A DNA stretch of 64,000 nucleotides from the NCBI RefSeq assembly GCF_038025025.1, contig NW_027117341.1, positions 1,922,001 to 1,986,000 of the forward strand, in the 5' to 3' direction. The notes beneath the pieces were generated by a model. The model had not been told where the DNA came from, did not search any database, and worked only from the letters and a program-made list of their open reading frames with translations. Of the stretch, positions 1 to 48,288 are shown one piece after another; the stretch's first letter is position 1; each line of letters begins with the position of its first letter. A program made the position numbers and the translations under genes. This stretch comes from Phyllosticta citribraziliensis. Taxonomy: Eukaryota.

Positions 1-524
1 GTGGCACGGCGAGTTCTGTTGGGCCGCGGCTCGAGATGGCAGCAAACATGCACGGCTGCCTGAAGCTTAGCATCCGCACCGACGCCATGAACATCTCGAG
101 CGTATGGACCGGCCTGTCGAACCCTGAGTTGAACCCATCGGCAATTTTGGGCGGCGAGGAAGGCATCGTGGACCACCCCAGTACGCGAATGAGGCAGATG
201 GGCACGGCCGATGGACGCAGCGAAGAAGGCTGGGCCACGGTGCGGATAGATGCAAGAGACTGGGGCAAAGTCATGTCTGTTGGAAGACTGGAGGGGAAGG
301 TCATTGCTTGTGAGTAGTGATCTGCCCAGAAGGACTGGTTTGCAGGCCGCTAACCCGAGACAAACAGGCTTTTGCCATAACCACGCCCTGATTGTATACG
401 TCTATCTGCCAACCGATGACGAGGGGCGGGAAGAGTCCGTATTGACGGTAAGTGCACGCGCAAGTGGTCGGTGCAAGTATGAGCTAAATGAAGGCAGTAT
501 TACATCACTTCCTACAGTGAGTGA
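1..524 (+). CDS. HUS1: 3' part of 9-1-1 checkpoint clamp subunit Hus1 (5' end outside window); introns 310-367 and 448-497
   Basis: Spliced translation ...LEMAANMHGCLKLSIRTDAMNISSVWTGLSNPEL...HPSTRM...WATVRIDARDWGKVMSVGRLEGKVIA|CFCHNHALIVYVYL...ESVLT|YYITSYSE* matches the fungal Hus1 C-terminus. Introns GTGAGT..CTAAC..CAG and GTAAGT..CAG restore the frame. Confidence 0.85.
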
Positions 525-3500
525 AGCAGACCAGCTCAATCTAAAATTGTCCGATGGACCAGGGGGAAAAGGGTTGAAAAATAAAAATGGTCAAGTCGAT
601 AAACAAAGCCACCATTGGGGCGTAATCAACGAGGCGCCGCGGTACCACAAACATGATTTGCATGCACGAATTCCCCGCAGGCCAGTGGAGCTTCCCCCAA
701 TTGGCTTCGAGTATTCGCAGTCTCGTGCAGATGCTCTCTCGGAATGGGCTGAGTGTCTTGGCTAGGAATTGGTGGCTTGGAGAGAGACGAGGGTGGCCGA
801 TCAACACAGGGGACGGATCATCCGGCATTGATTCTGCTCATGGTCTGATGCTCCCGATAGGCTTGAACGGGAAATCAAGGGGCCGCGAGACGATCAGACA
901 ATAGCCACAGCGCGGGCAGCGCCACAGCCGTGCGGCCGCGCAGAGGGCCACTGGAGCGTACAGACGGTTTCAAGGCCAATGATTCAGAGGACGAGAGCAA
1001 TCCGGAAGGCTTCTCGACGCCGCCACCGAACGATACGCCACGAAGCGCCAAGGGGAGTTGCAAAAAAAGAAGACGGGTACTAGTGCGGGTCGCCTTGTTG
1101 ACAAGAGACGCATGGTGTCGTCTTGATGAGCTGGCTCCTGCAGGTCGTCAACGACGGCAAGGCCGAGGAATGGCAAGGCGAAAATGGGAATTGCTTTGTT
1201 CGAAGAAGATGCTGGGAAGGGTGTCACGGGAGCATCTTGGTTCCTGCAGCGGCATGAGCTTTGTACGACGGCGGCCACGGGCAGGGGCTGGCGACGTGTG
1301 CTACGGCAGCATGTTTAGCCAGGCACCGTCGAGTCCAGGACGCGTATTCTAAGTGAAACAGCAAGAGGTTGGACAGAAGGGCCCGAGCTGGCAAGCAGTC
1401 GAGTGGATGGAGAGGTGTGAGAGCCACTGCCAGGGGACGAGGAGCCAAGGCCATGGATCGGGTCGAAAAAACGGCGGTGCAGCAGACTATCGCCTGCACG
1501 CAGCATCAATAATGCACCAAGAATATTGACGAGACCACGCGGCCAGGACATGACGCTGTTTTTTCCAATTACGTTGTGACTCTCGAACAATCGTCGATTT
1601 CAAAGCAGCAGGTCTCTGAGAGAAGCATACGTCAGCAATCGGCTGCCATGTGCCTGGAATGATGCCTGGAGTTGACTCTGCCTTGGAGATGGGGCTTGAT
1701 ATGACTGGACCCTTCTCCGCCATTGGCCGGCGGGCGTTTTCGCAGCGCGAGGCCTCTCGCTCGCCCTTTCGCGCCTCAGCCCTACCGAGCAGGGTATTTT
1801 TAGGAATCCGCTTCTGCTTCTCGCGTCATCCGCAGTCAGTGGCCCGTCAGTCAGTCAGTCAAACACCCAAACCCGACACGCACACACGCACGACCCGCCG
1901 CAGTGGCCGTTCCGTCGCATCGCATGCTTCCCAAACCCCCCTCCTGGGTCCTTTGCAGTGCGAGCGCAGGAACTCGCCCGTGTCGTTGTGAAGAATGCAT
2001 GCAGCCCTGTGTCCATTTGGCTCGAGGTCCGCGACGAGCTGATGTTGGTCCACCTTGGTCTATCTTGAGCGACGAGATTCCGACCGGCTCAGCACCTCAG
2101 GGATCAATCGGATGGAAGCGCCAGCACAACGGTGCCGGCACGGCAGTGGGGGACTCGAGATGGAGCATTCGTGCTCCTGCAACCTCGCAACGTGCTGGCC
2201 TGCTACCTAGGCAGGCTGACGACGAAGCCGCGCGCGGGCACTGGCAGCGAGGGCCCGCGATAAGGTGCTGACATTGTCATTATTTTCGGCTTCCCGGGGA
2301 CCTTGGATGACTGTGCTGGCTGCTGATGACAGCGACCTACTTCTTTGGCCGTTGCAGCGTCATGCTCTCGACTCAAAGAGGAAACGGAATGAGAGGTCGA
2401 GAAACTGGTTGCGAGGCTGAAGCCTGCGCCCCATGTCTGGAGTCCCTTGCTTCAGTCGTTTGTCAACGCCGTACAGTACCTGCAGTCCCGATGCTTTCGC
2501 CGTCGGGTTGTGCCACTTCGCAAGCTGCCGACTCGGTGCCCGCAAGAAGCGAATGCCACCTCGCCCCCTCGACCTCCATTTCGTCCCCGGGCCGCCTGTC
2601 AGCTGCTGCTTGTTCTGCCTTGTTGCGGCGTCCAAAGGCAGAGACCGCCATCTCGGCACATTATGGATGACCCCGTCGCGGCGATGATGGCGGCCGTTGA
2701 CAACAGCCTGTCCTGCCTGGTCAACACGCAACCTTTTGTTCCATCCCCTCCGCTTCTCCATCGCGTCACCTTTCACCCACCCTCGCACGTAGCCACGGCA
2801 TGCAGCGGCTGTGGCTTGCAGCAGCTGGGTCGACTCCATGTCCATGGTAGCACCCTCGTCTCTTCTCGTTTATTTTTTCCCTCCCTCTCCTCCCTTTCCC
2901 ATGCCCGGGCAATGCATGATATGGCTGTGTATGGTATGCAGGCAGGCAGGCAGCCTCACACGACGCACGCACGCACGGTACGGTACGGCGCCCCTCTATC
3001 CATCGCTCCATCCACACCTTATTCTCCCTTTCGTTTTCGCCTCGTTTTGCACGACGCAAAAGGGGTTATTCTTTCTCTGACCCGACACGGACAAGCACGG
3101 ACGGATGGACGCGACAGAGGTGGGAGTGAGAACACCTGGACCGTGCCATCCTTTCGCAATGCGATGCGCGTCCAGGGAGCATCTCTCCAGCTTGCCCGCG
3201 CATGCCAGACAGGCAACGAATTGCTCTCAATTACGATGCCAACATCATCACCGCAACCTACCATCAGCACAATCATCATTTTCCAGCCACCTGAACCACA
3301 GGGCCCCTGCGACGCATCGTGGCGCCCCATGCGATAGGCACCGTGACGCAGTCGCAGGGTCCGGGGTCCAAAAGATTTATTTTCTTTGCTCTCCGTTTCG
3401 TTTTCGCTGCTCGCTCTTACACTGCCCTGCCCCGTGCCCTCCCACGTTATGACTAGACTGGTCCTACCTACATACCACCCACCTGCGGCAGGACTATTCT

Positions 3501-3811
3501 TTGATCTGCACCCGGGGAGCCGGTAACCGGCCACACTCTGGCTTGCTTGGTTCCTGGAATACTGCTGCGCATTGGACGGTGTTCCATGAGCCATGTGGTG
3601 GAGGTGGTGGAAGAGGCGGAGGAGCAGCTGGAGCTGGAAACTAGCTGCTGCGGTAATGACCTGTCTTGTGTTTCTATTCCGCTTCTGTACAGCTGCCATC
3701 TGGGGGCTTCTTTTCGTCTTCCCGTCACTTTCTGTTTCTCTTCCCTTCTCTCACTCATATCCTCTCTGTGCTGCCATGTATGTGGGTGGCCTCTGGATTT
3801 AGGCAGAGATC

Positions 3812-3819
3812 ATATAAGT
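3812..3819 (+). promoter_or_regulatory. Putative TATA box for the small GRGGYN-repeat gene
   Basis: ATATAAGT is followed by a C/A-rich leader with no ATG until 4427. Confidence 0.45.
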
Positions 3820-4426
3820 ATCTGGAAAGTCTCCACCACTGTCGACTCATCCATTCCACCATCCCATCCCATCTACCCATCAATCATCCAAGGCATTAAT
3901 CAGTAACCACAAACCACACCGCCGGCTTGTTCTTCTTCTTCCTTTTGCTGGACACCTCCTACCGCTCAACTTTTACAACCAACAACCAACAGCCAACAGC
4001 CAACGCTACTGGCCTAATACCAACAAGCCACGCACACTACACGACTACTTGAACGCATCCCATCTGGTCTAATTTCCTCGCCAATTCAAATCACTCCAAT
4101 TCAATTCAACTTCGCCATTGCTCTCCGTCTCGTCAAACATCCAAACCACACACGCAAAGCCACCCCCACCGCCCCTCAACCTGCGTCTCTGCAGCAAGCA
4201 GATACGCCGACCAGCCTCCACACCACACATACATACGCAAGCGAGAGCAATCCTCCCGTCCACCCGTCCCGTCTGAGTGAGGCGGGCCTACACGTACGAG
4301 CCACGGCAAGACCGACCCAAACACGAGCACAGAGTCACCGCTCGCCTATCCGTCAGCCAGTCCGTCATAAGACTACGCCACACCAACCAACACGCACACC
4401 CGCCAACCACACGACTCACGACCAAA

Positions 4427-4579
4427 ATGGGCCGCGGCGGCTACAACAACCCCAGCTCCACCTCGTCACCGCTCTTCTCGTCCATGCTCGCCTTCCTGGC
4501 ATCTGCATCCGCAGGCCGCGGCGGCTACAACGTCACAATGGCTCTGGACGCTGCGGCGGGGAGGGGCGGGTATAACTAG
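4427..4579 (+). CDS. 50-aa micropeptide with three GRGGYN motifs, function unknown
   Basis: MGRGGYNNPSSTSSPLFSSMLAFLASASAGRGGYNVTMALDAAAGRGGYN*. The start context is CAAAATGG and it is the first ATG after the TATA box. The third repeat uses different synonymous codons. Confidence 0.65.
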   Translation: MGRGGYNNPSSTSSPLFSSMLAFLASASAGRGGYNVTMALDAAAGRGGYN

Positions 4580-5248
4580 ACTATACGCGCTCCTCTTCCT
4601 TCTTCTTCTTCCTCCTTCCAGCGTTTCATCTGCGGCAGCTGGCTAGCTGCCGAGCTATCTCGTCTCGTCCCATCTCCTCCCTGTTCTCTAATCCCGTCAC
4701 GCGCCCGATGTATTGGTGTACGATTATGACTTGGAGTTTTCGTTCTGTTTTGTTCTGACTTGTCTTTTGGCGTTGCTTGCTTGCCTGCATAGCGACGGTA
4801 CAGCGAACGGACGGCGTTCATGCTCATCCTTTCCTCTCTATCTCCATTCCACCTTCTTGTTTCATCTCCCTCTTGGAACGAATGGCGTTCGAATATAGAC
4901 ACGGCACGGCGCGCGCGGCGACGCAACGACGCGATGGGATGATACCACGGACGGACGGACGGCGTTTTTGACTTGTTTTTGGGTCTGTTTTGCGCGTCCC
5001 TCCCCTCGACTTTGTTATTCTAGACAGCGTCTGGTTCTTGAGATGGTGGTGTAAGGCATCGCAACGGATCACTTCGCACAAAAATCGAAAATCTCTCATA
5101 CCATTGACTTTTCCATGGCAGCTAGTTCGCATGTGCTGCTCGATTCGCTACTCAATTTAATCCATCCAGGCGAGTCAAACACATTCTGTGGACACCGCCG
5201 CCGCCTCCGTCGTTGCTCACTGCAGCACCCCACACGCCAATTCTGCCG

Positions 5249-6255
5249 TCAACCTCCAAAGTAAGAGACAGTGACCTTGCCAGGGTCAACACGGGGAAGC
5301 AGTTTCGGAGCGTGATTAACGACGATGCCATCTTGCGGACCAAAGGTCTGGCCATCGCTCGACTTAGCGACAGCATCAGTCAAGGTGAAAGAAGCGTCGA
5401 GCGGCACGGTGTATTTATTAGTCCTGGTATCAATGTACCTCTCGACAATCCACTCGGCATTTTTGCCGCTCAGGACAGAAGCCTGATCGACAGCCTTGAG
5501 AGTCCTGGCGAAAGTCTTCTTCGTGGTTTCATTTTCAATCGTGACGACGCCGACGGTGCCGCCGGCCGACGTCTCGATGCGGAACGAAAGGACGTCGCCG
5601 ATGCGGACTGGGAAGCCCGAAAAAAGGACCATGGCGGTGGGATCCTGCGGAATCCACTTGACGTCTGCTTGTCAGTGCCTTTTTGAGTTGTTTAGGGGTG
5701 GGGTGGGGACTGAGCTCGCTCGAGATATTTTTTTCTTTTTCTTTTTACCTCGTAGAAGGCTTGGATGAGTAGTTTGCCTTGCGCATCTATTTCCATCAAG
5801 ACGCCACACTGGAGGATGGTATTGGTTGAATACCCGTTAATCCCGACCCAGGCCGAGAGACTTATTTTGAGCAAAAGAACTGTCACCATGGTTCAAAGTC
5901 TTCATGGACTAAAAGCGAGAGAGGGGCGGATATACCCGATTGTAGTCCCAGGCTTCGGGGTTTCACCTTTCGGGATGACGGCATTTGGAACGGTGAGCTT
6001 CGCCGAGACGTAGTTGTAAAAGGCAGCCGGAACGTTGTAGACGCTGCTCGGAGGAGGCCTTGGAAGGACGCCGCCAGACCATGGATTAAATGCAGGAAAG
6101 AAATCGTCAGGTGGTTTGGTGGGATTTTTGATGCCGCCCTCGGCGAGCTCCTCGAGTTGGAGGTTGGCGTTCTGGTCTCCGGGGTTCTTCTGGGAAAGCG
6201 CAGCTCGGACCGTAGTGACCGAGAGGAAGGCGGTGAAAAGGGCAGCGAAATGCAT
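5249..6255 (-). CDS. Secreted glutamic peptidase, family G1 (Peptidase_A4/eqolisin-like), paralog 1; introns 5861-5935 and 5657-5748
   Basis: Signal peptide MHFAALFTAFLSVTTVRA; WSGG; LSAWVGING..ILQCGV (catalytic Gln); AFYE|WIP; NAEWIVE (catalytic Glu). Both introns are canonical and restore the frame. Confidence 0.88.
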
Positions 6256-7134
6256 CCTGAGAATGTATGACGGTGTGAAAGAGACAGAATTGATCGCTAG
6301 ATAATTTTGCTGTCATACTGTCTAGCTGCTCTATATACGCCGGCTGACCGGCTTGGACAGAAGAAGGGTGTGCGCACATTGGGAAGTGCGAGCGAAATTG
6401 CGAAAGATTGCTGATGGAACCCAAATGATATTAGAGACGTGGCGCTGACTTTTGGCGACAGAGCTAGGGCGCTCATGTTTAGTGTTCTAGAAAAGATGAT
6501 TTTGAGTGGAGCGGAGCGGAGCGGAGTGAAGCGGAGTCGAGGTATTATGGTCTTACTTTTTAGTTGGATACCCAAGATTTTGCCAAGATCTGGCGTGTAG
6601 CTAAATCACCATCCAGAGAAATATTCTACCATCACAAAATGTTCAGGCACTAAGGCACTAACCCTACCTGCCACTACGAAGGTTACTTCTCTACTGAAAA
6701 TTCTACTCAGTTCGCGACTCAATCCTCCGCTCCCTCCGCCAGGATCTCTTTATTTATGCTGTCTCCGACTGTCGGCGCTTAGGCGATTAGGCGATTTCGC
6801 TGAAGTCACGATTGAACTGGGAGAGAAAATTAGCCAAAGAAGGGGCGCGGAATTAACCATCGCCTTATTTTTCGGCCAGAACTTAAAGGCTTATTTTTAC
6901 GCTTGCTCGCATTCGTATCTTCTCCCGACCCTACGCCACACTTCTTGGATCAACCGCTCTAGCGAGGCCGACGAAGAGGAGGAATAGGTGAGCATGAGGC
7001 ATACACGCTGCATTATTGATCCACTTGACAACGCAGGCAGGAAACGGAGGAGATGAACAGACAGGAGTAGTGCGGTACTTGATGGGTACCTGGGTCCGGA
7101 GGAAGTGCCATCATACGGCTGCCCGACCACTAAA

Positions 7135-33469: not shown

Positions 33470-35410
33470 TCAAATGCGAACCATTCCAAAGGGACTGTTA
33501 CTATAGTCACTGTAATCACTGTAATCGTCCCTATCCGAGCTGTCCAGGGACTCCGATTCATCGCTCGAACTGCCGCTGGCATCGGTGTCCCTGTACAAGT
33601 GATCGCGCGGTTCCTCTTCAGCGTCTTCGGTGCTGCCTCCATAGCCGCGCTGTTTGCTCTCTCTTTCCGCGTCGAGCGTCTGCTCTGTGTGCAGCCATTC
33701 CATGCGGACTTTACTCGTGTGTCGGCATTTGAACGACGTTGGCCAGTTTTCGGGTTGAATTGTGAAGCGAAAGCCCGCCTCGCGGTTCTCAAAGGTCATC
33801 ATGGAGCCATCACAGTGCCGCGAATACTTTCCGCACACCTTGGTCAGCGTCTTCAGATCAAACCAGTCGACCAATCTGTCGCTCGATTCGGCCCTCAATC
33901 GCTCGTTGCCTTGGGCGGATCCTCGGTGGTAGGCGCAGCGCCAAGGGGAGTTCGCGAGTGCGTCGGTCATCCGGGAAGCCCTCCAACTTCTAAAGACCGA
34001 AGCTTCTTTGTCGTTGTATCTCTCTCTATCGATGAATTGGTCATAGAAGATGTCTGCGATGAACAGACCCATGAATATTGCGTTGTCTTGTATGGTGGTC
34101 TTGCGCCGAATGCCTCTAGAATCGCTTGGTTTGTTACATTCGATCATGTCCAAGATTTCGAAATTAGTCCGTCGGTCTAGGACTTTATCGAGAGATCGGG
34201 GGAGCAAGTATTCTTTGCCACATGCTCTGTAGACTCTTTCAGTGGAAAGCGCCAATCTCCTTTGGGTGCAATGGCAATCCGGAAGTGATGTGATTATGTT
34301 CATGGCATCACATGCCTCAAGAGCATAGCCCATCAGCCTCTTGTGCCGAGGGGTTGTCCGCCCACTTTCCAGGTAGTTCTGGAAGGCCTCAAATATGGGC
34401 TCCTGTATCATTCCTCGCTTGGCCAAGAGGATGGTCCGAAACCATAGTCGGCATAGGTACACAGGTCGCTGTGCCTCAAGAACCGCATCGAGAAGTACTT
34501 CAGACGATTTCTTGTCCATGTTCACCTCGATATTGGCGAGTGGTGATGTGCCGTCTTGGTCCGCTACCATTGCCATCGCGCCATAGAATCGGTCTTCAGC
34601 ATCTCTGCTGAGATAGTACCCAGTACTCATCATTTCGAGTAGTTCCCATAGCTTCTTCTTGCCTCCACCAAGGCGCAAATCAGTCAGAACTTTTATGCTT
34701 TTGATGAGAGCCGGGAAAAGTCCGGACGAGCCCTCCATTGTCCGACATAGGCCGCTCACTCCGGTTTCAACCTTTTCGAAGCTGGCTTGCTTGTTCCCGA
34801 TGACAAAGACAATTTTCTTTGCAACAGCACACTCTTGAACAACCCAAACACGTCTCCAGTATGCAAGTCGCGAAAATTGCTTGACGGCGCTTTGCATCTC
34901 TTGTGGGAGTTTGTTGAATTTCAGACAGCGTTTCCACTTATGGCCCCGAAAGAAATTCTCGAAATCCAGGATTGGCGTCAGGCACTCCCCTTCTCTTTTG
35001 GTCATGTCAAGCCATGCCAGCACTTTTTCTGCATTGCGAAAGATGTCACCCATGCGTGGAATCTGCTGCTGTTTCTCCTGCCTATCACTTTGGTCCAAGC
35101 AGATTTTGTCGGTCCAGATCCATGTGCTGCATATCCTTTGGTTCCATGCCCAATCAAGAAAGCGCCCCAGACTGTCGTGAACCGGGAACAAGTACAGTCT
35201 GCCCCCAGGTCTCCTGCGGAGGTAGATTTGTCGAATTTCAGTGTCATCTCCCCAGCAGTATGACAACGCTGTGTAAGTGGCCCGGGTCTGTTCCCTGTAG
35301 TGGACGTCGCACACAAGTAGCCCGTTGATTTTTCGTTTCTCCAGCTTGATGAGACGGATTGTTGACGGGGTTTCGAGATCCTCATACGGGAATTGATTTA
35401 ACAGTGCCAT
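33470..35410 (-). CDS. HET-domain (heterokaryon incompatibility, HET-6-like) protein, paralog 1, ~646 aa, intronless
   Basis: FPYEDLETPSTIRLIKL, YTALSYCWGD, WIWTDKICLDQSDRQEKQQQIPRMGDIFRNAEKVLAWL, YWRRVWVVQE. The start at 35410 was chosen by alignment with the two paralogs. Confidence 0.9.
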   Translation of the reverse strand: MALLNQFPYEDLETPSTIRLIKLEKRKINGLLVCDVHYREQTRATYTALSYCWGDDTEIRQIYLRRRPGGRLYLFPVHDSLGRFLDWAWNQRICSTWIWTDKICLDQSDRQEKQQQIPRMGDIFRNAEKVLAWLDMTKREGECLTPILDFENFFRGHKWKRCLKFNKLPQEMQSAVKQFSRLAYWRRVWVVQECAVAKKIVFVIGNKQASFEKVETGVSGLCRTMEGSSGLFPALIKSIKVLTDLRLGGGKKKLWELLEMMSTGYYLSRDAEDRFYGAMAMVADQDGTSPLANIEVNMDKKSSEVLLDAVLEAQRPVYLCRLWFRTILLAKRGMIQEPIFEAFQNYLESGRTTPRHKRLMGYALEACDAMNIITSLPDCHCTQRRLALSTERVYRACGKEYLLPRSLDKVLDRRTNFEILDMIECNKPSDSRGIRRKTTIQDNAIFMGLFIADIFYDQFIDRERYNDKEASVFRSWRASRMTDALANSPWRCAYHRGSAQGNERLRAESSDRLVDWFDLKTLTKVCGKYSRHCDGSMMTFENREAGFRFTIQPENWPTSFKCRHTSKVRMEWLHTEQTLDAERESKQRGYGGSTEDAEEEPRDHLYRDTDASGSSSDESESLDSSDRDDYSDYSDYSNSPFGMVRI

Positions 35411-36141: not shown

Positions 36142-37977
36142 TCAAAGCGGTCTCCGACTCAGTACTTGTTGAAGCCTTCCGTAGAAATTTGTAGTGCCTG
36201 CCGTCTTTTTGGGTGGAGCACCGTAGACTGGGGCGGTTGACATATGTCGTCTCTTGACAGACTCTTCGTGTGCGCGCGCCTCGAGGCTTGTCCGAGGATG
36301 TCTTTTCAAGACAGGCGGAATTGTATTGTCGAGGTGGCGGTGGGAAAAGGAGCCTTCGATTGGGATGATGCGACCAATCATCCGCCGTGCGAGAGAGTGT
36401 TTCGTATCGTTGTTCCCATCTGCTCCTCCCTGCCGGGCAGTCGTGGGGTGGTAAAACTGAAGGAGAATTTCAATCTGTATACCCAGCCTGAGCAAGCTGC
36501 TGGACCGTGTTACATATTCCGAAGATTGCAAGACCAGTCGAAAGCCAGCTTCGGGTATCTCAAAGATCATACTCCTCTTCGCCTCGCATTGCTTCATGGG
36601 ATGTACTAACTGCTCGTCGTACCGAGCACCTAGGTAATCCACTCGGCTTGCTTCTTCCCTTATCTTCGATGCCCAGCCGAGGCGTCTTTTCGCCAGATAG
36701 GCTGCGTGTTTCCACACTGAATATTGAGCAAGATTGTGCTCTCGGATCAAATGAAGAGACTTGGCTCGACAGCAGGATTCTATGGCAAGGAAGATGCCCA
36801 TGACGATTGCTCTGTCCTGAACGTTAGGCGTGAATCTACTTTGGTAAAGGTCATCAAGCAAATTTTTGAAACTGTAGCGAAAATTCTCCGGAGACTGTTC
36901 CCACCTCGAAGTGGAAATGACAAAATCCAAAGCATTGTAAGCGCGTAGCGCATGATGCCCCAGCTCTTTATGTCGTTTTGAGGTTCGATCGCTTGCCATG
37001 AATTCCCGGAGGAGGTCGGGTACTGACTCCTGCACCATCTCGTTGACTTTGAAAAGACCTGCCAGTTCTGCAAGGCCTGTCTTCTTTGAAATGGCCGACC
37101 AGTTTGTGTATGACAGCTGTGACTCAAACACTGCCTCTAGAAAAACATGGGAGGGCGGCTTGTCGTAATCGATGTCAATAAAATCCCTAGGTGATGTGCC
37201 GTCGCGATTCGCGGAAAGTAAGCCAAGCGCGCCGTAGACTCGATCCTGAAGTCGTTCACTTTTTAAAGTAGTGCTTTCCCGCAGCACATCCCAAAGCTCG
37301 CATTCTCCAACCACACGCAAATGGCGGATAAACTCCAGGGCATTCTGCCCGGGCATATCGAATTTCCCCCAAACATGCTCAAAATCAATCTCAAGGTTGC
37401 CGATGACGACAATGACCTGCTTCGCTCTTACAACTTCTTGGACTATCCATATACGTTTCCAGTATTCGTTGGACATGACGGACCTTGTCGCATTCCTTAA
37501 CGACCAATGGGACTCGTTATGCGGGATGAGCTTGTGGACATGCTCAAGAATCTGGCCAACTTTTTGGGATTCGTTCAGCCAGGATATAACCTGCATAGCG
37601 TTTTGAAAAATCTCTCCCATTTGCGGAATCTGGTGAGCTTTCTCTTCGTTATCTCTTTGATTAAGGCAAATCCGATCGGTCCAGAACCAGCGATCGAATT
37701 TGCCTTGGTGCCAAGCCCAGTCAAGAAACCGCCAGAGATTCTCATGAAGGGGGAAGATGAAACTTTCACCAGCTGGCGCATCTTCGGTCTCGACGAGGAT
37801 CTCCCGGGTCGGTGTTGCATCTCCCCAGACATATGATAGGGCGTAGTACTCAATGTCGGTTTGCTCAGCATGGCGGAGGACACAGACAATTGTGTCGTTG
37901 ACCTTTTGCTTCTGTATTTTGATGAGGCGAATTGTTGACCGCGTGGAGAGCTCGGTATATTGGAATTCGTTTGGCAT
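36142..37977 (-). CDS. HET-domain protein, paralog 2, ~611 aa, intronless
   Basis: FQYTELSTRSTIRLIKI, YYALSYVWGD, WFWTDRICLNQRDNEEKAHQIPQMGEIFQNA, YWKRIWIVQE, DRVYGALGL. Confidence 0.9.
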   Translation of the reverse strand: MPNEFQYTELSTRSTIRLIKIQKQKVNDTIVCVLRHAEQTDIEYYALSYVWGDATPTREILVETEDAPAGESFIFPLHENLWRFLDWAWHQGKFDRWFWTDRICLNQRDNEEKAHQIPQMGEIFQNAMQVISWLNESQKVGQILEHVHKLIPHNESHWSLRNATRSVMSNEYWKRIWIVQEVVRAKQVIVVIGNLEIDFEHVWGKFDMPGQNALEFIRHLRVVGECELWDVLRESTTLKSERLQDRVYGALGLLSANRDGTSPRDFIDIDYDKPPSHVFLEAVFESQLSYTNWSAISKKTGLAELAGLFKVNEMVQESVPDLLREFMASDRTSKRHKELGHHALRAYNALDFVISTSRWEQSPENFRYSFKNLLDDLYQSRFTPNVQDRAIVMGIFLAIESCCRAKSLHLIREHNLAQYSVWKHAAYLAKRRLGWASKIREEASRVDYLGARYDEQLVHPMKQCEAKRSMIFEIPEAGFRLVLQSSEYVTRSSSLLRLGIQIEILLQFYHPTTARQGGADGNNDTKHSLARRMIGRIIPIEGSFSHRHLDNTIPPVLKRHPRTSLEARAHEESVKRRHMSTAPVYGAPPKKTAGTTNFYGRLQQVLSRRPL

Positions 37978-40020: not shown

Positions 40021-40698
40021 ATGTCGTCCTATCTCTCCAACCTCCTCACCACCACCACCTCGCGATACAACTCGCTGCGACGCAACCTCCTCGACAGCGA
40101 AGGCGACGGCGACACCGAAGACGACACGCACATTGCCCGCGTCTTGCGCGCATACTACATGGAAAAGGGCCGCCCGTTTCCGCCCTGGCTGCCACCCGAC
40201 CCAAAGGCTCCCGCTACGCCCTCGGCCCAGCAATTCGTGCGTTCTACGGCACCTCAGACACAGCAGAGCGCCCCCAGCAGAGGCGGCCTCAGCGATCTCT
40301 GGGACCCGCCGGCACAGCAGGCTCCTCCGACACAGCCCACCTCACTGCGCAACCGCCCGGCGCCGCGCATGGTCAACTCGCAGGGCAGGGTGCTGCCGCC
40401 GCAAGATGTCATGAGCAGCCAGGGGCGACCACTGCCCAGCCAGCGCGCCGGTAGCTACCAGAGCACGCAGTCGACATTGTCGTCGCGGCCCTCGGTCGAC
40501 ACGCCGCCGCCGGGTAGCAGCGGTGGAGGAGCCACGGCTCAAGAACGACTGAAGCAACGACTTTGGGGGTCGGGCAGATCGGGGAGTCCTACCGGCAGCG
40601 TCAGCCCCGGAGGTACTGGATTATCAACACCTACTCGCAACCCATTCGAGAGATCTCACAGTGCTAACCCCCCATACACAGGGGGTCGGTTCAGATAA
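40021..40698 (+). CDS. MSO1: Sec1-binding exocytosis protein, Mso1-like
   Basis: N-terminal DGDTEDDTHIARVLRAYYMEKGRPFPPWL matches the Mso1 Sec1-binding motif; the remainder is low complexity. Confidence 0.82.
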   Translation: MSSYLSNLLTTTTSRYNSLRRNLLDSEGDGDTEDDTHIARVLRAYYMEKGRPFPPWLPPDPKAPATPSAQQFVRSTAPQTQQSAPSRGGLSDLWDPPAQQAPPTQPTSLRNRPAPRMVNSQGRVLPPQDVMSSQGRPLPSQRAGSYQSTQSTLSSRPSVDTPPPGSSGGGATAQERLKQRLWGSGRSGSPTGSVSPGGTGLSTPTRNPFERSHSANPPYTGGRFR

Positions 40699-45915: not shown

Positions 45916-48288
45916 ATGTCAAACGAGTATCGATACGCTCCTCTTGAGACCCCGTCGACGATCCGAGTCATCAAGATCCAAGAGCAAAAAGTCAACAACG
46001 AAGTCGCATGCGTCATCTGTCACGTCGACCAAACCGAATTCGACTATGAAGCGCTTTCATACGTCTGGGGAGACTCGACGCCAACCAGACACGTGTACCT
46101 GGGAAACGAAGCCGATCAAACGTGCTTGTTCCCGCTGCATGAGAACCTGTGGCGCTTTCTCAACTGGGCGTGGGACCGACGAATGTTCAATAGTTGGATC
46201 TGGACTGATCGAGCCTGTCTCAATCAGCATGATGGCAAAGAAATGGCACAGCAAATCCCCAGAATGGGAGAGATATTCAATAACGCGGAGCATGTCATCT
46301 CTTGGCTTGACATGTCTGAGAGAGAGGGGCGGCATCTGGTATGCCTTCAGTATTTCTCGCTAGCTGAGTTTGATGAAAAATTGGAAAAGGAGCTTGGAGG
46401 TGGATCGGCAATCCGCCACCGGGTTTCCCAGGAAACAGAACTTGTCGCGTATGCCGTATTGCGACATGAATACTGGAACCGCCTCTGGATAACGCAAGAG
46501 GTTGTGAACGCTAAGCGTCTAACCGTTATGATCGGAGACCACGGAATGGACATGGCCGACGTGGAGACAATGACCTCGCTTTTCGAGAGCAACGCGGATT
46601 TTGAGGCCTTCCTTCAACTCTGGCCACTGTACTCGCGGCGTGGACAAGACCAATTCAATAACCTACGGAACATGCTGGACCTGGTGGTGAGTGCCGAACT
46701 CAAATGCAAACTACCTCAAGATCGAGCCTATGGAATCTTGGGCCTGGTAGCTGATAACAGCGACGGCTCGTCGGTTGGTGACTACATACAGGTTGATTAC
46801 AGTAAGTCACCATTTCAAGTATTACTTGACGCATTACTTGTGGCTGAATCATCGTGGGATGAATGCGTGCCCAACTTGCTAGCTATGCCGTTCGTAAAGG
46901 GGAAGGTGGTGACTGAGCCAGTATTTGACCTCCTTGAGGAATACTTGAGCAGTGACCAAACATCAGAAAAACACCGAAAGTTGGCGCTTCACACCATCCA
47001 GGCATGCGATTGCTTAGTTATGATGTTCAACATTTCTGAGTGTCGTCCGAGCGCCTCCACCCACAAGGCATTCTCAACTCTTTTAAGAGAGTTGAAATGG
47101 AGCGGTTTCAAGCCTACGTTGCAAGAAAGCGCAGTGATGACAGGAGTTGCGCTTGTGCTTAGCCATGGCGCAGGAGATGAAATGTTCGAAAATTGGAATG
47201 CTCGCCAAAAGCACAGTCTTCCGACGTGTTCCGCCTGGCGATGCGCCGAGCACATGGCTGGAGGAAGAAATTATCCGCAAAGGGGTCAAAATTATCTCAA
47301 TTGGTTCCGCAGAAGGGAACGCCATGTGTGGCCACATGAACCCGAGTTTTTGACAGGGAAAAAGCCTGGAAGGGGAAATGAGCACCTGCTTTTCATGAGA
47401 GAACTTCCCGGGACGAGACAAGACTATTTGGACTGGTGTGACGAGAGCCAGGAAACGACGAAAAAGGTGCGCACACGTTGGTTAAATTATCTCAATTGGT
47501 ATTCCAAAGAAAGGGAGTGCCATCGCAAGCCGCCATTGGAAAGATATGCGCCTCTTTTCAAGCGAAGGGACAAATGGGAAGGCTTATTCTTGGATCCAGG
47601 ACTTGCCAAAAGGGCATGCGGCCATTATACGGACGGTGGGAACTGCGATGGGTCGACCATGATGTTTGAGATTCCGGAAGTTGGCTTTCGCCTGGTGTTC
47701 AAGCTGAGTGGAAATAGACCGGGGGGCCAACTATTCATCCACTTTCGGCTTCCAAAACCGGATCAAGAAGAGGAAGAGCGGGAGGGAACCCAGGGACATG
47801 GACAAGAAGGAGTCATCCAAAAGGAAGGAGATGAACGAGGAAAAGAAGAAGGAGAAGAGGAAGAAGAAGAGGAGGAGGAGGAAGAAGAGGAGGAGGAAGA
47901 AGAGGAGGAGGAAGAAGAGGAGGAGGAAGAAGAGGAGGAGGAAGAGGAGGAGGAGGAGGAGGAAGAAGAACAAGAAGAAGAAGAAGAAGAAGCAGAAGAA
48001 GAAGAAGCAGAAGAAGAAGAAGAAGAACAAGAAGAAAGGAACTGGCAAGATGACCTACCATACTTCCCTCTTATTTGGAGCAGCGGATTCCATTCATACA
48101 CACGCACGGCCCGAGGCTTTGCCCCATTCCACCAATTATGGACAGGCAAGCGCTACATATTATGCTCGCATTACTACGATTGTGACGTGGAGGATCCCGT
48201 AACCCTCTGGTTTACCGACTGGAACAAGCCAGTCCCGCGCCGTCTGCGGAACGAATCGTATTTCATGCAACATCTCGATGAACCCTAG
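45916..48288 (+). CDS. HET-domain protein, paralog 3, 790 aa, with an internal repeat insertion and a poly-Glu tract
   Basis: YRYAPLETPSTIRVIKI, YEALSYVWGD, WIWTDRACLNQ..QQIPRMGEIF, YWNRLWITQE, DRAYGILGL. Confidence 0.9.
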   Translation: MSNEYRYAPLETPSTIRVIKIQEQKVNNEVACVICHVDQTEFDYEALSYVWGDSTPTRHVYLGNEADQTCLFPLHENLWRFLNWAWDRRMFNSWIWTDRACLNQHDGKEMAQQIPRMGEIFNNAEHVISWLDMSEREGRHLVCLQYFSLAEFDEKLEKELGGGSAIRHRVSQETELVAYAVLRHEYWNRLWITQEVVNAKRLTVMIGDHGMDMADVETMTSLFESNADFEAFLQLWPLYSRRGQDQFNNLRNMLDLVVSAELKCKLPQDRAYGILGLVADNSDGSSVGDYIQVDYSKSPFQVLLDALLVAESSWDECVPNLLAMPFVKGKVVTEPVFDLLEEYLSSDQTSEKHRKLALHTIQACDCLVMMFNISECRPSASTHKAFSTLLRELKWSGFKPTLQESAVMTGVALVLSHGAGDEMFENWNARQKHSLPTCSAWRCAEHMAGGRNYPQRGQNYLNWFRRRERHVWPHEPEFLTGKKPGRGNEHLLFMRELPGTRQDYLDWCDESQETTKKVRTRWLNYLNWYSKERECHRKPPLERYAPLFKRRDKWEGLFLDPGLAKRACGHYTDGGNCDGSTMMFEIPEVGFRLVFKLSGNRPGGQLFIHFRLPKPDQEEEEREGTQGHGQEGVIQKEGDERGKEEGEEEEEEEEEEEEEEEEEEEEEEEEEEEEEEEEEEEEEEEQEEEEEEAEEEEAEEEEEEQEERNWQDDLPYFPLIWSSGFHSYTRTARGFAPFHQLWTGKRYILCSHYYDCDVEDPVTLWFTDWNKPVPRRLRNESYFMQHLDEP
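47854..48036 (+). repeat. Coding GAA/GAG microsatellite (~60 codons, nearly all Glu)
   Basis: Includes four perfect GAAGAAGAGGAGGAG units at 47881-47940. Confidence 0.95.

Follow-up and report, generated by a model that had tools for sequence, protein, structure and literature searches.

A 64,000-nucleotide stretch of the genome of the fungus Phyllosticta citribraziliensis (NCBI RefSeq assembly GCF_038025025.1, contig NW_027117341.1, positions 1,922,001 to 1,986,000 of the forward strand; hereafter the window) carries a small open reading frame (smORF) in which a single hexapeptide, GRGGYN, is encoded three times. Judging from the sequences compared here, the gene and the family to which it belongs are in all probability real and held under selection at the level of the peptide. 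The GRGGYN smORF family is very likely an undescribed one, spread over the Pezizomycotina and represented in the window by a member from a Dothideomycete. Its functional unit would appear, with good confidence, to be the GRGGYN motif rather than the whole polypeptide, and the motif pattern suggests that the gene is translated.

The open reading frame (ORF) runs from ATG to TAG at 4427-4579 on the forward strand, comprises 50 codons and encodes MGRGGYNNPSSTSSPLFSSMLAFLASASAGRGGYNVTMALDAAAGRGGYN. Exact copies of GRGGYN lie at 4430-4447, 4514-4531 and 4559-4576, the second and third corresponding to residues 30-35 and 45-50 of the 50-residue product. The start codon and the first copy together spell MGRGGYN (4427..4447); a Ser/Ala/Leu-rich spacer of 22 codons (4448..4513) leads to copy 2 (4514..4531), a second spacer of nine codons (4532..4558) leads to copy 3, and TAG follows copy 3 at once (4559..4579). 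Neither spacer is conserved. Copies 1 and 2 share the same codons, GGC CGC GGC GGC TAC AAC, and the identity of their DNA ends at the motif borders. Copy 3 is written GGG AGG GGC GGG TAT AAC and differs from the other two in four of six codons and at five bases, every change being synonymous. Chance would give the degenerate DNA pattern of GRGGYN 0.005 times in 64 kb, both strands counted, as against the three occurrences observed, all in the frame at 4427-4579. With up to two mismatches allowed, the window holds seven matches where 1.82 are expected, and the exact ones are the three of the ORF. A constrained DNA or RNA motif can be ruled out because CGC-to-AGG changes occur between motif copies.

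An earlier sequence-only reading of this DNA had reported a 50-residue ORF with three GRGGYN motifs and the codon differences given above, and that description proved correct. Its proposal that the peptide, rather than a DNA repeat, is what selection preserves is borne out as well. The internal methionines, M20 (4484-4486) and M38 (4538-4540, in the context ACAATGG), lie where it had put them. Its three motif sites also stand, except that the interval 4514-4531, given as AGRGGYN, spans GRGGYN only. The start codon sits in the context ACCAAAATGG. GC content at third codon positions is 0.82, which is weak evidence of coding because the strand is C-rich anyway. Intervals of 25 and 12 residues separate the RGG units; Lys, KR and RR are absent from the peptide, and its N-terminus, MGRGGYNNPSSTSS, reads as the motif and not as a hydrophobic signal.

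Several more conventional assignments were considered for the ORF and set aside. It was rejected as an exon of a longer gene, given that starts and stops fall at matching motif positions among family members and that the in-frame sequence upstream looks non-coding and has no Pfam match. The hydrophobic residues 16-29 were rejected as a signal or membrane segment, being too short and not conserved in the family. A mating-pheromone precursor was rejected for its lack of a Cys or CAAX end and of Kex2 repeats, and N-myristoylation of the N-terminal Gly for the Arg that follows, which misfits the consensus. A cleavage site of the RGG type found at ubiquitin tails is a purely speculative further idea.

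A word-indexed search with the single window peptide, at similar length, returned no match. An exhaustive search of 1.84 billion representative sequences returned four, of which two are relevant: P0004, a 59-residue hypothetical protein of Thermoascus crustaceus (E 4e-4), and P0002, a 658-residue metagenome protein with 11 exact GRGGYN copies. The other two, P0003 and P0005, look spurious. P0004 aligns with the window peptide without a gap and with all three motifs in register. With a profile built from two sequences, 58 candidates came up, among them 24 small proteins at E ≤ 10, P0004 included; this profile search, along with the gapless alignment, supports 4427..4579 on the forward strand as coding sequence. 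The named sources of the small proteins are Aspergillus wentii, A. arachidicola, A. homomorphus, Thermoascus, Exophiala mesophila and Lasallia pustulata, and all named members are annotated as 'hypothetical' or 'uncharacterized'. The family ranges over Eurotiomycetes, Lecanoromycetes and Dothideomycetes, Phyllosticta belonging to the Botryosphaeriales within the last of these.

Together with the window peptide, the 25 small proteins contain 60 exact motifs, with two to five in each protein, and in 24 of the 25 a Met stands immediately ahead of the first one. Their spacers, 2-32 residues long, cannot be aligned; mean column identity in the 25-protein alignment is 18%, and the motif columns alone are invariant. 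Between P0013 and P0014, for instance, the spacers have diverged heavily while the motifs are untouched, and the divergence of P0009 from P0011 resembles a frame shift that was restored before motif 2. Members terminate in one of two ways, on a motif or with a short acidic tail. In the Eurotiales type it is the acidic tail, rather than a stop, that comes behind the second copy; the stop comes straight after the last motif in five of the 25 small members, in four of 19 matches from a search for longer proteins, in two metagenome loci (L001 and L004) and in six of six distinct 7-codon ORFs described below. Endings like that of the window, with motif and then stop, are seen in P0017, P0018, P0029, P0030, L001 and L004. 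The arrangement of three motifs with the last at the terminus recurs in P0018 and P0029 and also in P0058, a protein of another Dothideomycete, Aureobasidium melanogenum, whose C-terminus is a three-motif ORF ending in GRGGYN. The window ORF thus has the features by which the family is recognized: it opens with Met-GRGGYN, carries further exact copies after an unconserved spacer in a product of under about 100 residues, and ends on the motif. Met also recurs near internal copies, at position -2 in 14 of 35 cases in the small proteins and at -1 in 11 of 83 in the long ones, a placement consistent with longer ORFs having arisen from fused mini-ORFs, or with internal copies being initiated independently.

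Among the longer matches, P0050, P0052-P0056, P0058 and P0061 were not counted as fusions, for they look like over-extended gene models that end in a smORF. P0052, a 1239-residue protein of Aspergillus felis annotated as an ankyrin-repeat protein, has a two-motif smORF as its last 50 residues (MGRGGYND...MQGRGGYNDVHSDDD) and is probably a gene-model fusion with an adjoining smORF.

None of the 25 small members reaches a curated Pfam cut-off, the best E-value being 0.06 to unrelated families, and P0002, P0004, P0047, P0049 and P0060 are without a Pfam match. That result extends to DUF3602, which we take to be a fungal family of GRGG motifs: no small member matched any Pfam family, DUF3602 included. 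Neither the single-sequence nor the profile search returned a protein named from Phyllosticta, and the ESM Atlas gave no usable match. In the portions of the literature that came up for the string GRGGYN there is nothing on such a gene family; one occurrence of the string belongs to yeast Hrp1, discussed below, and another is an artefact of a peptide written ...RGGY-NH2. Neither six locus tags of named family members nor the name DUF3602 is mentioned in the literature searched. In work on smORFs and micropeptides of filamentous fungi no such family appears among the matches listed, the supplementary tables of ribosome-profiling and proteogenomic studies lying outside that search.

That the motif can stand on its own is indicated by metagenome contigs, where a scan with the pattern MGRGGYNx[PVA] identified 11 loci in seven distinct lineages, one of these lineages (L003/5/6/7) being the same sequence in four assemblies. 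In four of the seven, ORFs of seven codons that consist of ATG, GRGGYN and a stop turned up unasked on the same strand. L011 has three of them (2151-2174, 2339-2362 and 2423-2446), each ATG-GRGGYN-TAA with differing synonymous codons, within 300 nucleotides; no longer ORF joins the three, and about 55 nucleotides past the last a convergent MnmE gene has its stop. L002 and the L003/5/6/7 and L008/9 lineages have one mini-ORF each, 130-200 nucleotides upstream of the main ORF and in a different frame. As no GT follows the mini-ORFs, they do not represent exons ending at a splice donor. Over the 28 motif copies of eight distinct loci, the window included, codons vary freely (GGN, CGN/AGR, TAY, AAY), and the amino acids change only once, to GRGDYN in L001, whose ORF has six copies. 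Loci and window add up to about 166 kb, in which all motif copies lie on one strand and within about 300 nucleotides. Given free-standing MGRGGYN ORFs and spacers that cannot be aligned, the motif would be the functional unit and the spacers filler.

The same hexapeptide is found in much larger proteins. Five Pleosporales proteins of 802-1095 residues with a calpain-family Peptidase_C2 domain (P0057, P0059, P0062, P0063 and P0064) contain 5-9 exact copies, mostly with a Q before each, in a disordered linker that follows a Lys/Glu-rich stretch; in P0057 the array occupies residues 719-847. These arrays are not gene-model merges, because conserved sequence flanks them on both sides. The Q before GRGGYN is common to the calpain-like arrays and the small proteins. 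The long domain-less proteins P0002, P0047, P0049 and P0060 hold 4-11 copies. Long arrays include degenerate copies (GRGGHN, GRDGYN, GRGGFN), whereas ORFs of two or three copies do not. GRGGYN thus seems to function, or at least to persist, when embedded in a longer polypeptide, much like a linear motif. A gene model of Drosera rotundifolia, P0048, has eight exact DGRGGYN copies at residues 369-656, behind an MBOAT_2 domain; two genes may have been merged in the model, the repeat may be convergent, or the motif may be read outside fungi.

Contigs from related organisms lend the ORF weak support as far as their sequences go. Those of run X8 span 3300-4982 and differ from the window there by 72 substitutions and 58 gap letters; those of a second related organism (run X6) cover the ORF in two pieces, and run X7 matched in small pieces only. 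Two of the listed differences fall in the ORF, 4504 T>C (codon 26, Ser) and 4537 A>G (codon 37, Thr); both change a third position without altering the residue, and the list has no indel within the ORF. The 34 of 72 X8 differences that are listed divide into two in the 153 nucleotides of the ORF, 19 in 1127 nucleotides upstream and 13 in 403 nucleotides downstream. Contigs of run X2 are identical to the window and bear the organism label of X1, the run that matches the window best, so they are not independent. In that run the contig covering 3300-5604 (6216 letters) has a mean word depth of about 271, and the next contig (5629-5861) one of about 6, a drop that might stem from RNA, from a mixture or from filtering of the records.

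The flanks of the ORF suggest the outline of a transcription unit. A likely 5' leader, C/A-rich and G-poor, spans 3850..4426 on the forward strand, with limits placed by base skew and by reading (GC skew -0.43 and AT skew +0.26 in 4001-4500), and C/A-rich leaders also precede the family ORFs in seven other loci. A TATA-like TCATATAAG is read at 3811-3819 on the same strand. The pyrimidine-rich flank at 4580..4720 (+) is likely to be the 3' untranslated region, its limits drawn by reading only. Rfam gave no match at E ≤ 1 over window 2500-6500.

For the neighbouring genes, Pfam scans covered 33 window ORFs (32 within 1-20.8 kb, one at 15.9-16.7 kb) and 51 ORFs of four related loci, all taken from stop to stop and at least about 110 residues long, a definition by which short exons could be missed. 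Downstream and convergent, 670 nucleotides from the smORF, lies a peptidase A4 gene at 5249-6312 (-), with its Pfam match on 5249-5671; past it follow an acyl-CoA dehydrogenase, an EH-domain protein, MMU163 and a LOR-family gene. Upstream, window 1-4426 is a tract of about 4.4 kb with no Pfam-matching ORF on either strand, in a window that is otherwise gene-dense. No match to UstYa/DUF3328, tyrosinase, P450 or other peptide-tailoring families was found in the 33 window and 51 related-locus ORFs, nor any ThiF-family match among the scanned neighbours of the window and the four related loci. The upstream regions of the four loci and the window have no neighbour in common by tblastx. On the other side the picture is uniform: in all seven distinct metagenome lineages a convergent TrmE/MnmE gene, of the family of yeast MSS1, lies 55-500 bp past the smORF stop (L001, 5914-7986; L004, 1758-3686; L007, 10392-12796; L011, 2502-4725; partial in L002, L008/9 and L010). 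Since the MnmE proteins of four lineages, compared pairwise, are 51-57% identical, the pairing of MnmE and smORF is old, and the two transcripts probably overlap at their 3' ends. MnmE is a frequent and not a defining feature of the family.

Elsewhere in the window, an Mso1-domain (Sec1-binding) protein is encoded at 40021-40695 (+). An exact look-up of ten window ORFs found this one in the protein collection, in a 90% cluster with proteins of several Phyllosticta species, and the other nine absent. An Mso1 gene is also present at L001 (12116-12757, -); the L001 and window genes lie 7 kb and 35 kb from their smORFs and are 53% identical, which may be at most a faint trace of shared regional ancestry, or mesosynteny. 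Three long ORFs of the window, at 33470-35410 (-), 36142-37977 (-) and 45916-48288 (+), encode 611-790 residues with similar N-termini (...ETPSTIR[LV]IK[IL]...) and are presumably paralogues of a HET-type family.

The earlier suggestion that gene callers miss such an ORF is upheld by the protein collection, from which the exact window peptide is absent even though the Phyllosticta Mso1 protein is present. The claim of an undescribed peptide family has likewise held up, with no small member at a Pfam cut-off and nothing on the family in the literature searched. So has the misfit to Kex2-processed repeat proteins and dikaritin precursors, for the peptide lacks a signal sequence and a Kex2 site, and the nearby Pfam matches include no tailoring enzyme.

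The reading we favor is that of a genuine smORF delivering RGG-type linear motif peptides. As a complete account it falls a little short of an even chance on our analysis. The sole element under selection would be the hexapeptide GRGGYN with an initiator Met right before its first copy, present in 1 to 6 copies per gene that may be fused via unconstrained spacers or kept as separate MGRGGYN-stop ORFs on the same strand. The spacers, including the 22 and 9 residues of the window, would then be evolutionary filler. Such a gene would supply an RGG-type short linear motif on small, disordered, cytosolic peptides, which would bind whichever protein recognizes this motif in large polypeptides, for example in the linker arrays of the Pleosporales calpain-like enzymes. 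By analogy with the insect tal/pri/mille-pattes peptides and Ubr3, the peptides would serve as a soluble ligand, adaptor or competitor, their valence being set by copy number; this ligand or competitor mechanism is advanced more tentatively than the reading as a whole. From general knowledge of GRG/RGG motifs, the reader could be an arginine methyltransferase or a receptor of the karyopherin-beta2 type. These are candidates because the GRGG-aromatic core is of RGG type and because the exact string occurs in Hrp1 of yeast, within its nuclear localization signal of the proline-tyrosine class (PY-NLS), as tabulated in PMC8140498.

A number of points weigh against this linear-motif reading. The window lacks a separate MGRGGYN-stop mini-ORF, its three exact motif matches in 64 kb all falling inside the ORF, and tblastn with four MnmE proteins found no MnmE in the 64-kb window. 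The invariance of the motif is partly built in for the first copy, as the searches start from words or patterns that contain it. Listed substitution density in the ORF is not visibly below that of its flanks. In the cytosol, free hexa- and heptapeptides usually do not last long. That a stop so often follows Asn could mean that a free C-terminal Asn matters, which a linear motif does not require. Finally, the arrays in calpains, in other long proteins and in the Drosera model may be convergent low-complexity repeats.

The main rival, in our view improbable, treats GRGGYN as the core of a ribosomal hexapeptide, free or modified, whose role might be that of a signal, of a cofactor-like molecule or of a natural product. 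Fused ORFs would be multi-core precursors, with cleavage ahead of the Gly that opens each core and behind its Asn, and the 7-codon ORFs would encode the core itself and need Met removal only. An invariant core repeated between variable linkers is what such a precursor should look like, the mini-ORFs are exactly Met plus core, and a stop right after Asn is shared by the window, L001, L004, five of the 25 small proteins and every mini-ORF. Precedents for directly encoded precursors of 5-7 residues, microcin C MccA and biarylitide BytA, point the same way. However, the window peptide has neither a signal peptide nor a dibasic site, and the scanned ORFs of the window and of the related loci hold no known peptide-tailoring family, MnmE being the sole conserved neighbour while upstream neighbours are not common between loci. 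Exact copies inside large intracellular proteases are hard to reconcile with a dedicated precursor, as is the acidic tail that replaces the stop after the second copy in the Eurotiales type. A broader formulation, rather unlikely but not as improbable as the precursor just described, is a dedicated fungal peptide system in which the active species is (M)GRGGYN, released from strung 7-codon ORFs or cut from fused ones, and acts on a conserved target, either by diffusing as a regulator or in the form of a modified small molecule. If true, the (M)GRGGYN system would be a fungal counterpart of tal/pri or of the bacterial mini-precursors, conserved in three or more Pezizomycotina classes and overlooked by gene callers.

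Two further explanations give the peptide less of a role or none in the window. The ORF might be a cis-acting or antisense regulator, whereby the act of translating MGRGGYN, or a transcript that overlaps the convergent gene at its 3' end (the partner being MnmE/MSS1 in relatives and the peptidase A4 gene in the window), tunes that gene. ORFs of seven codons are typical of regulatory short ORFs, the MnmE partner has stayed 55-500 bp downstream in seven of seven lineages despite the extent of its divergence, and the window too has its convergent gene 670 nucleotides away. We consider this quite unlikely all the same. No ORF lies downstream on the same strand that could be the target, the lack of MnmE in the window shows the pairing to be dispensable, and a very short convergent gap is a small target for rearrangement, which may itself explain the synteny. 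Moreover, 5-9 exact copies within long translated proteins oppose a ribosome-arresting peptide, and the strictly synonymous variation means that it is the peptide that is constrained and not the RNA. There is, in addition, a very slight chance that the window ORF is a silent relic or a frame preserved by accident in a family that is possibly functional elsewhere. Both the MnmE neighbour and the upstream mini-ORF are missing here, and the listed substitutions are not sparser in the ORF than on either side of it. A relic would nonetheless have to retain three exact motifs, a good start context and an open frame that ends right after motif 3, to accumulate five base changes in copy 3 with no amino-acid change, and to share a three-motif, motif-terminal layout that recurs in A. 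melanogenum P0058 and in P0018 and P0029; the two listed differences in related organisms are, moreover, synonymous.

To our knowledge, conserved micropeptide genes are almost without example in filamentous fungi, because annotation pipelines discard such small ORFs. The present family offers a clean signature in six residues that are invariant over three classes, with varying copy number and fusion state and with free 7-codon ORFs in relatives. Motif-repeat logic of this kind can recover coding genes that homology- and length-based annotation has missed. The pairing with MSS1, a mitochondrial tRNA-modification gene, and the calpain-like arrays provide two concrete leads on function. The system is also a tractable entry point, as one synthetic peptide could serve to find the reader protein and a start-codon mutant would split the function of the peptide from that of the RNA.

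Several known systems resemble the GRGGYN family in part. Closest in gene organization is tal/pri/mille-pattes of insects, in which one RNA carries several tiny ORFs with a common short motif and a copy number that varies between species. The motif there is LDPTGXY and the ORFs have 11-32 codons; LDPTGXY is absent from the window peptide, and the likeness is one of gene organization only. Unlike that insect gene, to which it has no sequence relation, the fungal family has a unit of 6-7 residues whose copies are often fused. Mille-pattes peptides act by binding a protein partner in the Mlpt-UBR3-Shavenbaby module (bioRxiv 10.1101/376111).

Fungal multi-core precursors of ribosomally synthesized and post-translationally modified peptides, namely the ustiloxin-type dikaritins and the Kex2-processed repeat proteins, likewise repeat identical short cores in a small precursor. 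Those precursors have an N-terminal signal peptide, dibasic Kex2 sites and clustered tailoring genes, whereas the window peptide, as scanned, has none of the three. Bacteria provide the nearest match in size: MccA and BytA are encoded by genes of 5-7 codons beside modifying enzymes, MccA being a heptapeptide that ends in Asn and MccB, from the adjacent gene, a ThiF-like adenylyltransferase. As in the GRGGYN mini-ORFs, the product is the peptide itself, and the window peptide shares the C-terminal Asn of MccA; the GRGGYN loci differ in having no modifying enzyme among their scanned neighbours, and there is no sequence relation. With RGG/RG proteins such as yeast Hrp1, the family has in common a disordered context and a GRGG core with an aromatic residue just after it. 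RGG/RG boxes are closely spaced degenerate repeats in RNA-binding proteins, with two or three RGG units few residues apart, and the window peptide falls outside that definition. In contrast to such boxes, the GRGGYN family keeps six residues invariant over spacers of 2-32 residues, on a carrier of 7-100 residues and with no PY element. The exact hexapeptide, often with its preceding Q, is shared with the calpain arrays of Pleosporales (5-9 copies in five proteins), which are embedded in Peptidase_C2 enzymes of about 1000 residues and for which the literature searched holds no description. Taken together, these comparisons portray the GRGGYN family as a multi-copy motif smORF gene with a real chance of representing a new peptide system.

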